From the NCBI GenBank assembly GCA_021831565.1, contig JAKBMM010000002.1:39440-103439 (forward strand): a stretch of 64,000 nt of DNA, in the 5' to 3' direction. The notes beneath the pieces are model-generated. The model saw nothing but the letters and a program-made list of their open reading frames with translations. It was not told where the DNA came from and ran no database searches. The position numbers and the translations under genes are program-made. Origin of the DNA: Planctomycetota bacterium. Its GTDB lineage: Bacteria > Planctomycetota > Phycisphaerae > WQYP01. Positions within the stretch are counted from its first letter, which is position 1, and each line of letters begins with the position of its first letter. Shown one piece after another: positions 6,799 to 11,408 of this stretch.

Positions 6799-7505
6799 AA
6801 TTTCGCGGGATTGGTCTGCGTAAGCGTGCAAACCTGCTCGCGGCCAACCAGTTCGATCGCCCGCTCCAATCCGGCCAGCCGCGTGGGCAGATGGTCCGGC
6901 CGATGGCAATCCGAACCGAGCATAAAATAGAGGCCACGGGTCAGGAATTGTTCGGCAAGCGCGCGGATCGGCTCCGGTTCCGACCCGCCCAGCGGCCCCA
7001 GATTTCCCTGGAACAACACCCCCCGGTCCGCCAGAGTCTCAATCAGGGAGGGATTGGCGCGTATGGCATCCATTCGTTCCGGGTGGGCCAGGATTACCGT
7101 CAGACCGCGGCTTTGCAGAGAGTCGATCGCCTCGTCGGCCCAGTGCGGCCAGTCCGGCTCCCATGAATCCGCCAGACAGTACGCCGTGTTCAGGCCATAC
7201 GTGGGTATGCGGTCCATATCGTCCCACCGCAACAGTTGCCGCGAGAGCCGCAGTTCCCCCCCCGGCCGGAATTGCGCCGCCACCCCCCGCTGCTCCATCT
7301 GTCGCTGAAAAACCTCCACCGCTCGCCGCGTCTGCTCCGGCGTAACATCGCCATATTCCGTGCAGCCGGTGTGCGGGGTAAGAAAAAAACGATCGTAGCC
7401 GTGCTGCACCATCGCCCGGACGCACGCGAACGAATCGTCCAAGCCGACGCAGCCGTCGTCCATTCCCGGCAGAAAATGATTATGTACGTCAATCCGGTTC
7501 ATCAT
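6789..7505 (-). CDS. PHP-family tyrosine-protein phosphatase (CpsB/YwqE-like)
   Basis: [18 protein letters not shown]...LAHPER...GSDCH match the CpsB metal-binding motifs. Overlaps pdxJ start and typA stop by a few nt. Confidence 0.7.
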   Translation of the reverse strand: MMNRIDVHNHFLPGMDDGCVGLDDSFACVRAMVQHGYDRFFLTPHTGCTEYGDVTPEQTRRAVEVFQRQMEQRGVAAQFRPGGELRLSRQLLRWDDMDRIPTYGLNTAYCLADSWEPDWPHWADEAIDSLQSRGLTVILAHPERMDAIRANPSLIETLADRGVLFQGNLGPLGGSEPEPIRALAEQFLTRGLYFMLGSDCHRPDHLPTRLAGLERAIELVGREQVCTLTQTNPAKLWV

Positions 7506-9364
7506 CCGGGCGTCGCCGCCTCCGACCGGTCCAGGCGTTTGCGCTGATTTTCCTTCAGGTAACGCTTGCGCAGGCGGATGTTCCGCGGCGTAATTTCCAA
7601 TAATTCGTCATCCTCAATGTATTCCAGCGCGATTTCCAGCGACATGTCGCGCGGCGGCTTGAGAATAATGTTCTTGTCGCTGGCCGTCGTGCGCATGTTG
7701 GTAAGCCTTTTCTCGCGGCACACGTTAACCGTAATGTCATTGTCCTTGTTGTATTCGCCGACAATCATCCCTTCATAGACCGCGTCGCCCGGCTGAACAA
7801 ACATCATGCCCCGTTCCTGGAGCGAGTCGAGTGCGTAGGCGTTGGCCGCGCCGTTTTCCATGCTTACCATCACGCCGTTGAGCCGCCCCGGCAGCGCACC
7901 GCGGATCAACTGATAATCATGAAACGTGTGGTGCATCACCGCTTCGCCCTGCGTGGCATTGAGCAGCCGCGTGCGCAGACCGATCAGCCCCCGCGCCGGT
8001 AGCAGGAATTCCAGGTGCGTCATCGTCCCCTTCGTGTCCATACGGACCAGCTCGCCGCGGCGATTGCCCACCGCCTCCATCACCGCCCCGACAAATTTTT
8101 CCGGCACGTCGATCGTGAGATTTTCCACCGGCTCACATTTGCGGCCGTTGAGCTCCTTGAAAATCACCTTCGGCTTGCCCACCTGCAGCTCGTAACCTTC
8201 CCGCCGCATGTTTTCCAGGAGCACTCCCAGGTGCAGAAGCCCGCGGCCGCTGACCCGCAGGGAATCCGGCGAGGCGGTGTCCTCCACCCGCAGCGCCACG
8301 TTGCTTTGCAGTTCATGGTATAGCCTTTCCCGCAGGTTCCGGCTGGTGACGAACTTGCCTTCCCGCCCGGCGAACGGGGAATCGTTCACACTGAAAATCA
8401 TGCTCAGCGTCGGTTCGTCGACGTCGATCAGCGGCAGCGCTTCGGGCCTGTCCAGCGCGGCGATGGTGTCGCCGATATCCACGTCCGGAATCCCGACGAC
8501 GGCGCAGATGTCGCCGGCCTGCACATGGTCCGTCTTTTCCCGCGCCAGTCCGGAAAACAGATAAAGTTCGTTGGGGACGTGCGCTTCGATTTTCCCGCTG
8601 CGCTTGACGAGGGCGATTTTCTCGCCGCGCCGCAGATAGCCGTTGAATACCCGCCCGATGCCGATCCGCCCCACGTATTCGTTGTAGTCGATGTTGGTCA
8701 CCTGCATCTGCAGCGGCTTGTCCGCATCCGCCACCGGTCCGGGAATTTTCTGAACAATGATTTCCAGCAGCGGGCGCATGTCGCTATCGGAATGGGCCGG
8801 ATCCAGCCGGGCGAAACCCTCCCGCCCGGAGGCATACACCACCGGAAAGTCCAGCGCGTCGTCATCCGCTTCCAGCTCCACGAATAAATCGAAAATCTCG
8901 TTGAGCACTTCGTTCGGCCGCGCATCCGGGCGGTCGATCTTATTGATCACCACGATCGGTTTGATGTGGTAATGAAATGCCTTCTTGAGCACGAAGCGGG
9001 TCTGCGGCATGGGGCCTTCGAAGGCGTCAACCAGCAACAGAACGCCATCGGCCATTTTCAGCACGCGTTCCACCTCGCCGCCGAAATCGGCGTGGCCGGG
9101 GGTGTCGATGATGTTGATTTTCCGCGCGGCGCCCCGCACATCGGTGTAGTTCATCGCCACATTCTTGGCCAGAATGGTGATGCCGCGCTCCCGTTCCAGG
9201 GGGTTGTTGTCCAGGATCAGCGTGCGAACATCGAACTGGCCGGTGTGAAACATGCCCGACTGGCGGAGCAGGGCGTCCACCAGCGTGGTTTTGCCGTGAT
9301 CCACATGGGCGATAATGGCGATATTTCGTAACTCGTCGCGACGTTTCATATTATTGTTTTTCAT
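7502..9364 (-). CDS. typA: Ribosome-binding translational GTPase TypA/BipA
   Basis: [31 protein letters not shown] and NKIDRPDAR GTPase motifs; full-length about 620 aa. ATG at 9364 ([12 protein letters not shown]); alternative start at 9349. Confidence 0.9.
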
Positions 9365-9486
9365 CTTAAGCGGTCGGCGGAGCAAGCCCGGCCAAACCAT
9401 GTATCATACGGCATTTGATCTTCCGCACCAAGCGAACCCGATTCTTTCAACCTTGGAAAACTCAACATTCGCCCACGGCGGCGGGT

Positions 9487-9515
9487 TTGACGAACCGGCG
9501 CCACCGGCCTAATCT
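9487..9515 (+). promoter_or_regulatory. Sigma70-like promoter TTGACG-N17-TAATCT for the small basic-peptide gene
   Basis: TTGACG at 9487..9492, 17-nt spacer, TAATCT at 9510..9515. Lies about 125 nt upstream of the ATG at 9642, in the divergent region from typA. Confidence 0.3.
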
Positions 9516-9641
9516 ATCCCCAGTGCGATTTTCCGCCCGGCCCGCCCCTTGCCGTTACGGCCCGTCCCGATAACTATTCGGAATGGCCGTTGGGCTTCGC
9601 AAAGGGACGGGCAACAGGCTCGTTAACGCAGGAGAACCTTG

Positions 9642-9722
9642 ATGCCCAAACCCCGTCGCCGCCGTAAGATCGGCAGTAAGAAACGTCACGCCAAGTGGAA
9701 AGCCCGCCATCACCAACAATAA
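9642..9722 (+). CDS. 26-aa extremely basic peptide MPKPRRRRKIGSKKRHAKWKARHHQQ, possible bTHX-like small ribosomal protein
   Basis: GGAG RBS at 9631..9634 ending 7 nt upstream of the ATG; TAA stop at 9720..9722. Below the ORF-track size cut-off. The RRxRR-KI segment resembles ribosomal protein THX. Confidence 0.4.
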   Translation: MPKPRRRRKIGSKKRHAKWKARHHQQ

Positions 9723-9726
9723 GAAC

Positions 9727-9742
9727 CTATCTATTGAGATAG
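9727..9742 (+). terminator. Short hairpin CTATCT-ATTG-AGATAG immediately after the small peptide gene (carries the shared motif TCTATTGAGATAGT)
   Basis: Perfect 6-bp stem with 4-nt loop, followed by TTTC AAAAA. AT-rich stem, so a weak terminator or a protein-binding site. Confidence 0.3.
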
Positions 9743-9824
9743 TTTCAAAAACCCGCTTGTTCCACCCGCGGACCGCGGATCTCGGGATAACGCCGGCACC
9801 CGCGCCGCGGGCCGCCGCAGAAGG

Positions 9825-11408
9825 TCATTCTTCCAGCGGCGTACCCTGGTCCACCGTGCGCCGCGCGATGGTTCGCACGCGATTAATCGCCGCCAGGTAC
9901 GCCTTGGCGGAAGCTTCCAGAATATCCGTGCTCAAGCCCCGGCCACGCACTTTCCGGTCGCTGTGTGTTAATTCCACAATCGCCTCGCCCTGTGCCTCGC
10001 GACCGCCGGTGAGGCTGCGCACCTGGTAGGAATCCAGGCGGGCGCTGATGCGCGTCAGCCGTTGGATAGCCGCGAACATGGCGTCCACCGGCCCGTCGCC
10101 GGTGGCGGCGTCGGTGATTTGGGCGCCCGCGCTGTCGACCAGCGTGACCATGGCCGTGGCCACGCCCTGCGTGCCGGCCATCACCTGCAAAGCCTTCAAC
10201 TGGAACAACTGCTGATCCGAGGCGAGCTGCTCTTCGGCCAGCGCTTCGAGGTCTTCATCGTAAATCTCTTTTTTCTTGTCGCAGAGAACCTTGAACTTCT
10301 CGAACGCCCGATCCAGCGCCGCTTCATCCAGGCGAAGGCTCAATTCCTCCAGCCGCTGGCGGAAGGCGTGCCGCCCGCTGTGTTTGCCCAGCACCAGCGT
10401 GTTCCGCACCAGACCAACATCTTCCGGCGACATGATCTCGTAGGTGCGGCGCTCCTTGAGCACCCCGTCCTGGTGAATGCCCGCCTCGTGCGCAAAGGCG
10501 TTCTCTCCCACGATGGCCTTGTTTCGCTGTACGTGCAGCCCGGTGAGCGTGCTGACCAGGCGGGAACAGGGCACGAGCCGGCGCGTGTGGATGCCGGTGG
10601 CGAAGGGGAAACGATCCTGGCGGGTGTGGATCGCCATGACGATCTCTTCCAGCGCCGCGTTGCCGGCCCTTTCCCCGATGCCGTTGATGGTGCATTCAAT
10701 CTGCCGGGCGCCGCCAAGGACCGCGGCCAGCGAATTGGCCACGGCCAACCCCAGGTCGTCGTGGCAGTGGGCGCTCCAGACGACATCTTTCGCGCCTGGC
10801 ACGCGGGCGAGGAGATCCTTAAACATGGCCAGGTACTCCGGCGGCGTGGCGTAGCCCACGGTGTCCGGGCAGTTGATGGTGGTGGCGCCGGCTTCCATCG
10901 CCGCCTGAACGATCTCGGCCAGGAAGTCCGGTTCCGTGCGGCTGGCGTCTTCCGGAGAAAATTCGACATCGGGTACGTACTCGCGGGCCAGTTTCACATT
11001 TTGAACCGCCAGGCGGATGATTTCCTCCTTGGCTTTTTTGAGCTTGAACTCGCGATGAATTTTGCTGGTGGCGCAGAACACGTGCACCCGCCCGCGGGCG
11101 GCATACCGCACCGCTTCGCCGGCCCGGCGAACATCTTTATCCGTACAGCGGGCCAGGGCAGCGACGGTGGAACCGGTGATTTCCGAAGCAATGGTGCGGA
11201 CCGCCTCAAAATCGCCGGGGCTGGTGATCGGAAACCCCGCCTCAATCACATCCACGCCCAGTTGTTCCAGGGCATGGGCAATTTCCAGCTTTTCCTGCAA
11301 ATTCAGCGATGCGCCCGGCGACTGCTCGCCGTCGCGCAGCGTCGTGTCGAAAATGATCAGGCGTGTTTTATCGCCTGGAAGCGGTTGCGTTTTTTCGTCC
11401 TTAGCCAT
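9825..11408 (-). CDS. leuA: 2-isopropylmalate synthase
   Basis: LRDGEQSPGASL, HCHDDLGLAVANSLAAV and the C-terminal LeuA regulatory domain are all present. Confidence 0.9.
   Translation of the reverse strand: MAKDEKTQPLPGDKTRLIIFDTTLRDGEQSPGASLNLQEKLEIAHALEQLGVDVIEAGFPITSPGDFEAVRTIASEITGSTVAALARCTDKDVRRAGEAVRYAARGRVHVFCATSKIHREFKLKKAKEEIIRLAVQNVKLAREYVPDVEFSPEDASRTEPDFLAEIVQAAMEAGATTINCPDTVGYATPPEYLAMFKDLLARVPGAKDVVWSAHCHDDLGLAVANSLAAVLGGARQIECTINGIGERAGNAALEEIVMAIHTRQDRFPFATGIHTRRLVPCSRLVSTLTGLHVQRNKAIVGENAFAHEAGIHQDGVLKERRTYEIMSPEDVGLVRNTLVLGKHSGRHAFRQRLEELSLRLDEAALDRAFEKFKVLCDKKKEIYDEDLEALAEEQLASDQQLFQLKALQVMAGTQGVATAMVTLVDSAGAQITDAATGDGPVDAMFAAIQRLTRISARLDSYQVRSLTGGREAQGEAIVELTHSDRKVRGRGLSTDILEASAKAYLAAINRVRTIARRTVDQGTPLEE

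Follow-up and report, generated by a model that had tools for sequence, protein, structure and literature searches.

Among described systems, the closest to the gene considered here are the tiny, very basic ribosomal proteins bTHX, bS22, bL37 and eL41. bTHX, a peptide of about 26 residues with no acidic ones among them, has a gene that stands alone and carries its own expression signals, and sits in a cavity of the head of the 30S subunit; bS22 and its mitochondrial counterpart mS38 (AURKAIP1/COX24 domain) are short and Arg/Lys-rich, about 33 amino acids (aa) long, and often missed by annotation; bL37 is a hyper-basic protein of 24 residues with a MAK start; and eL41 is a 25-residue protein of eukaryotes and archaea. 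To our knowledge, nearly all conserved bacterial or organellar peptides of up to 30 residues with such a charge are ribosomal, the examples being these same four proteins. Several of these tiny ribosomal proteins became known only once ribosome structures had been solved (PMC5876184, PMC10618245, PMC11851116); bS22 itself was found only in this way (PMC5876184, PMC10618245), and bL37 offers the precedent of a tiny protein that is the counterpart of an extension of uL30 in other lineages (PMC10618245). The locus analysed here lies in a window of 64,000 nucleotides (nt), that is, the whole stretch of DNA that was studied, from a bacterium of the Planctomycetota (contig JAKBMM010000002.1; class Phycisphaerae). 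Positions 9487-9746 of this window hold an independent monocistronic gene with a sigma-70-type promoter, a leader, a strong Shine-Dalgarno sequence and an open reading frame (ORF) of 26 codons, whose product, MPKPRRRRKIGSKKRHAKWKARHHQQ, contains six Arg and six Lys (12 of 26 residues), three His, and neither Asp, Glu nor Cys. The ORF is a genuine and so far unannotated protein-coding gene under purifying selection. By database comparison, it belongs to a family of stand-alone hyper-basic peptides of 24-27 aa for which there is next to no annotation and no counterpart among the described families, and the evidence leans slightly towards the product being a small, lineage-restricted ribosomal protein separate from THX. 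The chances appear about even that Phycisphaerae and other soil, peat and sediment bacteria carry in it an unrecognised ribosomal protein family deserving its own bS or bL number; more speculatively, the Trp-containing tail of this protein might touch the rRNA element that the N-terminus of uS14 binds.

The coding character of the ORF is established by its conservation. Metagenomes were scanned with KPRRRRKIGSKKR, the 13-residue core of the peptide, back-translated into a DNA pattern, which yielded at least 120 stretches, 118 of them non-redundant. The ORF is 24-27 aa long in all of these loci and starts with ATG in 116 of the 118; a Shine-Dalgarno-like core (GGAG, GAGG or AGGA at positions -18 to -4) likewise precedes it in 116 of 118, against 212 of 2360 control positions (9%). 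At the codons left unconstrained by the pattern, the proportion of synonymous differences (pS) is 0.53-0.75, near saturation, the proportion of non-synonymous differences (pN) is 0.03-0.19, and pN/pS is 0.05-0.32; the window and one further Phycisphaerae-type locus (L188) encode the same peptide with 10 synonymous differences between them. Since the frame, the start codon, the stop position and the Shine-Dalgarno sequence are all kept in 118 loci under purifying selection, the ORF goes beyond what chance would leave. The start is ATG 9642, which is kept among relatives, and not TTG at 9639, the start given by the ORF-calling tool, which is unconserved. The original prediction of an unannotated gene for a 26-aa hyper-basic peptide is thus borne out, the ORF being exactly as quoted there and its frame being conserved in relatives; its counts of 13 Arg plus Lys and four His were each too high by one.

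Protein-level searches brought up the same family. The peptide duplicated in tandem served as the query, and a concatenation of three variants as a second one. The tandem query found seven database proteins, one of them annotated from a metagenome-assembled genome (MAG) of the Phycisphaerae; six of the seven end with the peptide as their last 26 residues, preceded by N-terminal extensions. These extensions are mutually unrelated, so the database ORFs are over-called, and conservation in them begins exactly at the Met of the peptide. A profile search free of the pattern constraint, run through 1.84 billion representative proteins, returned 43 matches at E<=0.001, nearly all of them mis-called ORFs. 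Specifically, in about 37 of them, two bare peptides of 24-26 aa included, an ORF of 24-218 aa has the peptide as its end; in P0132, P0138 and P0196 the peptide is N-terminal and the entries read through its stop codon, while the basic stretches of P0191 (6234 aa) and P0197 (1240 aa) lie in the interior of very long proteins. Variation of the core in the profile matches is limited to K[P/S]RRRRK[I/V]GSKKR, and none of the 43 carries a domain fusion that would hint at function. In the databases, the peptide is stored mostly as the C-terminus of over-called ORFs of 35-218 aa (P0001-P0007, P0132-P0142, P0170-P0196). Exact sequence look-ups returned JGI entries only, nameless or labelled "hypothetical protein", and no NCBI or UniRef entry; no copy of the DNA pattern occurs in 2.9 million viral contigs or in the PLSDB plasmids. 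In the literature, the core motif was found in no paper, and the PDB and literature searches turned up neither a ribosome structure nor a proteome from a carrier. As far as these matches indicate, conservation of the family extends beyond the Phycisphaerae (Planctomycetota) to numerous other bacteria of the environment.

The family consensus reads M-[A/S/G/P/T]-K-P-R-R-R-R-K-[I/V]-G-S-K-K-R and is followed by a variable basic tail, of which five types can be told apart:

Type 1: ...H[A/S/Q/T]KWKARHH[I/V/Q]Q; this is the Phycisphaerae type, to which the window peptide belongs.
Type 2: ...[R/K/H]x[R/K]WK[I/V]R[H/N]KIS.
Type 3: ...KARRDRRKR, 24 aa, the commonest type, from soils and peat.
Type 4: ...RERRNRRKKK.
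Type 5: MAFK...RNRKLMRKKK.

Across the family loci (L081-L205; positions 9645-9647 in the window), residue 2 is always Ala, Ser, Gly, Pro or Thr. Methionine aminopeptidase removes the initiator Met when the second residue is small; the initiator Met is therefore predicted to be removed, which would leave [A/S/G/P/T]KPRRRR as the mature N-terminus.

The peptide gene of the window is laid out as follows:

9487-9492, plus strand: -35 element TTGACG, read from the sequence, with TTGAC kept in relatives.
9510-9515, plus strand: -10 element TAATCT, after a spacer of 17 nt; relatives have TACAGT, TACATT, TAAAGT, TAAATT or TACTTT.
9516-9641, plus strand: 5' leader of about 120 nt, specific to the source species, with transcription presumably starting near 9522.
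9560-9568 and 9604-9612, plus strand: the two arms, GCCCGTCCC and GGGACGGGC, of a perfect 9-bp leader helix with a 35-nt loop, present in the minimum free energy (MFE) fold.
9630-9634, plus strand: Shine-Dalgarno sequence AGGAG, 7 nt before ATG 9642.
9642-9722, plus strand: coding sequence of the peptide, with ATG at 9642, 26 codons and TAA at 9720-9722.
9723-9732 and 9737-9746, plus strand: the two arms, GAACCTATCT and AGATAGTTTC, of a hairpin immediately 3' of the stop codon, with 9 of 10 positions paired, a 4-nt loop and no T-run.

A generic sigma-70 scan calls no promoter at 9487-9515, because TAATCT fits just three of the six positions of TATAAT, the E. coli -10 consensus. The support for the promoter comes instead from comparison, since the arrangement TTGAC-N17-19-TAnnnT recurs upstream of the ORF in 11 of 11 loci of the Phycisphaerae type, the rate in control windows being 1.4%. 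The promoter and the ribosome-binding site proposed at the outset both hold up in this light. The hairpin proposed downstream of the ORF is present as well; it is not conserved among relatives, the terminator scan does not call it, and the same scan of the window finds no intrinsic terminator after the peptide ORF. Over the family, intrinsic terminators lie 3' of the ORF in 24 of 110 cases (about 22%), a mild enrichment over the controls (57 of 590). As to expression, all six Arg codons of the window ORF are CGY (CGT or CGC), as are 56 of 66 when the Phycisphaerae-type loci are pooled; the neighbouring genes mostly use CGG for Arg, and a ribosomal-protein operon of a related lineage, taken from another genome, prefers CGC. 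This pattern, drawn from a small sample of codons, is weakly consistent with high expression of the peptide gene.

The well-characterised bacterial, organellar and eukaryotic peptides of comparable size, charge and conservation are, as far as is known, all ribosomal. The conserved partner that the product would bind is therefore most likely ribosomal RNA (rRNA), and the product itself most likely serves as a small ribosomal protein. In the mechanism that we propose, the peptide would be made abundantly and lose its initiator Met; it would bind structured RNA through its invariant Arg/Lys-rich N-terminal stretch together with a short basic C-terminal helix, and may in this way fill a pocket of the rRNA as a ribosomal or ribosome-bound protein, like bTHX, bS22, bL37 and eL41. 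Several points weigh against this assignment. The association of the peptide with the ribosome is something that we infer from analogy and conservation, and the arguments from codon bias and from the promoter are indirect. Neither the peptide nor the family profile has a match at E<=10 in the PDB, which includes the chains of solved ribosomes. The gene has no conserved ribosomal or translation gene as a neighbour, its adjacency to typA being unique to the source species. The DNA pattern with which the main data set was gathered itself prescribed the 13-residue core, whose near-invariance therefore rests on the smaller protein-level searches. Lastly, for the subfamilies outside the Phycisphaerae, cluster look-ups of neighbouring proteins yielded no organism names, and the 52-65% identity of some neighbours to Planctomycetota loci is only suggestive of where these subfamilies belong.

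The main rival to the ribosomal assignment, and in our estimate a rather unlikely one, is a non-ribosomal role in nucleic-acid binding, in which the product would be a polyanion-binding microprotein such as a protamine-like peptide that compacts the nucleoid or DNA, an RNA chaperone, or a transient cofactor of ribosome assembly or hibernation. A peptide in which 12 of 26 residues are Arg or Lys and none is acidic would bind any nucleic acid, and both the unconserved linkage to translation genes and the lack of similarity to ribosomal chains in the PDB suit such a role. Protamine-like proteins, however, evolve fast, and unspecific neutralisation of charge would not need a core as conserved as this one, whose 13 residues are near-invariant while the synonymous sites are saturated, which points to one specific conserved binding site. 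The peptide, moreover, is single in every case and invariably 24-27 aa long.

If the product is ribosomal, it might be a highly diverged member of one of the known families, bTHX, bS22/mS38 or bL37, with which it shares length, charge and a stand-alone gene organisation. We regard this as improbable. Neither the window peptide nor any of 21 diverse family members has a match at E<=10 in Pfam or NCBIfam, and this holds for all the pertinent models (Thx, COX24_C, THX, bS22, mycobacterial bL37 and planctomycete bL37). Sequences of THX, bS22 and mycobacterial bL37 served as positive controls. The Thermus thermophilus THX control scores 62.8, 54.7 and 64.9 bits on the THX models, the bS22 control 62.6 and 46.2 bits on its own models, and the bL37 control 51.8 bits on its own; scores of 46-65 bits for the controls mean that peptides of this kind are within reach of the tests. 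In the PDB, a single bS22 sequence retrieves bS22 and mitochondrial mS38, whereas the profile of the whole family finds nothing.

The comparison with each family points in the same direction. The product resembles bTHX in its length of about 26 residues, its strongly basic character, its want of acidic residues and its stand-alone gene equipped with separate expression signals, and both would plausibly work by filling an rRNA cavity. It differs in that family members do not match PF17070, TIGR04560 or NF011339 at E<=10 and in that the conserved motif is KPRRRRKIGSKKR in the family and GKGDRRTRRGKIWRGTYGK in THX. The likeness of RRRR-KI to the RRTRRGKI core of THX, on which the original prediction had based a kinship with bTHX, is compositional, since the alignment of the window peptide with THX is no better than that of shuffled sequences (Smith-Waterman score 20, against 22.6 +/- 4.4 for shuffles, p ~0.74; p = 0.28-0.83 across subfamilies). 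By these comparisons, the peptide is not a member of the THX family; of the proposal of a bTHX-like ribosomal protein, what survives is the general look of a tiny hyper-basic ribosomal protein. With bS22, the loose likeness consists of a basic run, Ile or Met, two residues and a Lys pair (RRRRK-I-GS-KK in the family, RRKR-M-SK-KK in bS22), and the window peptide aligns at p ~0.02; the other three subfamilies, in contrast, have p >0.45, the family does not match PF08213 (COX24_C) or NF047430, and its members are 24-27 aa long, against about 33. With bL37, the size, the start and the charge are comparable, but the family matches neither NF047428 (mycobacterial) nor NF047429 (planctomycete), and the Smith-Waterman p is 0.39-0.71. 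NF047429 (ribo_Plancto_bL37), a model of 32 positions in NCBIfam, is specific to Planctomycetes; its existence means that the tiny ribosomal proteins of the Planctomycetota are partly catalogued, and the peptide family matches no such model. The size and charge of eL41 are similar as well, whereas the alignment is not (p = 0.69-0.96). The tail of the window peptide, KRHAKWKAR (9681-9707), aligns with KRHAKKLAR of the C-terminal tail of E. coli bS21 at p < 1/3000; the matching positions vary within the family, the other subfamilies have p > 0.2 and there is no Pfam match, so the resemblance is judged coincidental. More generally, the resemblances to the bS21 tail, eL41, bL34 and bL36 were set aside as compositional or confined to variable positions.

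A further reading, which we hold to be very improbable, sees in the peptide a detached, duplicated or mimicked form of the N-terminal rRNA-binding module of type-Z uS14 (PF00253). The likeness lies in KWK[A/V]RHH and is limited to the Trp-containing subfamilies: the KWKARHH tail at 9693-9713 of the window can be set against PKWKVRHHNRC in uS14 (P0008/P0009, residues 15-21), and the uS14 proteins closest to P0003 read MAKTVDMPHNQKPPKWKVRHHNRC..., with KWK[A/V]RHH in common with the Phycisphaerae-type tail. Smith-Waterman alignment with P0009 gives p ~0.006, for a comparison picked post hoc, and a hidden Markov model (HMM) of the S14 N-terminus, evaluated against shuffles, gives p ~0.005-0.22 in the Trp-containing subfamilies, the best lying at 0.005-0.03. 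In the other subfamilies (KARRDRRKR, RERRNRRKKK and MAFK), by contrast, the S14 signal is missing (p = 0.27-0.9). Nothing in uS14 corresponds to the invariant core KPRRRRKIGSKKR; on the scale of a database the score falls short of significance, and the PDB holds no match at E<=10. Moreover, the peptide ends ahead of the first Cys of uS14 and lacks its Zn-ribbon (CxxC...CxxC), and its gene does not lie between rplE and rpsH; a canonical rpsN is found in the spc operon in six loci (L206-L211).

A point in favour of the uS14 reading comes from a single metagenome contig of 660 nt (L083), in which the N-terminus of the peptide runs on in frame into a complete type-Z uS14 (P0003, positions 411-605), with rpsH after it, and the product of the fusion is aligned colinearly with Bacillus subtilis uS14 by HMMER. 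The contig is probably an assembly chimera, which is the simplest reading: its nt 329-490 are like the small-ORF loci, leader included, its nt 460-660 are 95-97% identical to rplE-rpsN-rpsH loci, and the junction falls at the shared KWK codons, although the exact common run of about 12 nt is short for such a chimera.

The genes that flank the peptide gene in the window bear on a regulatory alternative and are the following:

7502-9349, minus strand: typA, divergent from the peptide gene, identified by NCBIfam above its curated cut-off.
9825-11408, minus strand: leuA, convergent with the peptide gene, identified by NCBIfam above its curated cut-off.

The divergent position of typA, a point of the original prediction, is as described there, while the meaning attached to it is not upheld. 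The relatives of its TypA assign the window to the class Phycisphaerae of the Planctomycetota. One Planctomycetota MAG (L001) has a TypA 99% identical to that of the window and an intergenic region 99.8% identical, and this near-identity places it in the same species. Among 80 typA loci from genomes, a similar ORF or similar intergenic DNA is found in this MAG only; the remaining 36 typA loci of the Phycisphaerae type (L002-L037), like the more distant ones, have no similar ORF, so the pairing with typA is not conserved. Around the peptide gene, the neighbours are constant within a tail subfamily and unrelated between subfamilies. Specifically, loci of the Phycisphaerae type adjoin leuA, a gene of the LeuD family or purM (window 9825-11408; L188:4671-5237; L084:5571-8891; L087); in 18 loci of the KARRDRRKR type, the same strand carries pyrF about 85 nt downstream; in 25 loci of the Trp type, a same-strand gene for an AcsV-like corrinoid activase follows after about 75 nt, with an extracytoplasmic function (ECF) sigma/anti-sigma pair upstream; and the RERR type adjoins an AmmeMemoRadiSam radical SAM gene. 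Because the neighbours differ between subfamilies, selection acts on the peptide itself, and this counts against a role as a leader peptide. In the Phycisphaerae-type loci, a loose linkage to genes of leucine and purine biosynthesis is kept and that to typA is not.

The regulatory alternative is that of an upstream ORF or leader peptide, or of an incidental ORF next to a structured leader RNA that would be the functional unit, and it strikes us as hardly likely at all. It could draw on the same-strand genes that follow 75-85 nt downstream in some subfamilies (the 18 loci with pyrF and the 25 with the AcsV-like gene) and on the long leader of the window with its 9-bp helix; yet the downstream gene varies by subfamily and is convergent in the window, L081 and L084, and it is the sequence of the peptide that is conserved, not the flanks. 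The leader, for its part, is specific to the species. Between the -10 element and the ATG lie 126 nt in the window as in the same-species MAG, against 35-55 nt in the ten other Phycisphaerae-type loci; the extra segment of about 70-90 nt, which holds the 9-bp helix, is shared with that MAG only, absent from all other family loci and not repeated within the window. Its fold is unremarkable, the MFE of the leader being -49.5 kcal/mol against -48.2 +/- 3.8 for dinucleotide shuffles (z = -0.36), and an Rfam search of the leader region finds no family near its gathering score (the best hit has 18 bits, against 50). On account of the species-specific segment, the lack of an Rfam match and the shuffle-level folding, the reading of the leader as a riboswitch or autoregulatory mimic was rejected. 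The proposed structured leader of about 120 nt is thus correct in length and ordinary in structure; its 9-bp helix exists, whereas the autoregulatory role suggested for it finds no support, given its absence from the rest of the family, and no known riboswitch or non-coding RNA matches the region.

A short cationic product of a stand-alone gene might also bring to mind a toxin, such as one of type I, or an antimicrobial peptide. This reading is scarcely credible, as the peptide has no hydrophobic or amphipathic membrane segment, is extremely conserved across lineages and contexts, unlike the patchy toxin systems, is absent from the plasmids and viral contigs scanned, and has neither a conserved antisense RNA nor a partner gene.

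Were the product ribosomal, as the evidence slightly favours, the ribosomes of the Phycisphaerae and of the other carriers in soil, peat and sediment would hold a component that annotation has missed, and structural models of the ribosome, estimates of ribosomal-protein content and marker sets would be affected. Whatever its function, the family exposes a blind spot of annotation, in that a near-invariant core of 13 residues present in at least 120 metagenomic loci is absent from Pfam, NCBIfam and the PDB. The family has stayed invisible so far because the gene, at 75-84 nt, is below the length that gene-callers accept, and the consensus [M][A/S/G/P/T]KPRRRRK[I/V]GSKKR can be used as a probe in annotation pipelines.

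Two minor features of the surroundings complete the description of the locus. The longest ORF of typA starts at 9400 and has 632 aa; homology to TypA begins only at Met 9349 (615 aa), so the 17 codons upstream of it are probably untranslated, and about 135 nt separate the typA start at 9349 from the -35 box of the peptide gene. On the other side, one further feature lies between the stop codon of the peptide gene and that of the convergent leuA:

9765-9815: a G+C-rich cluster of CCGCGG palindromes, made of inverted repeats with no T-run.

These palindromes are possibly the region in which the transcription of both the peptide gene and leuA ends.

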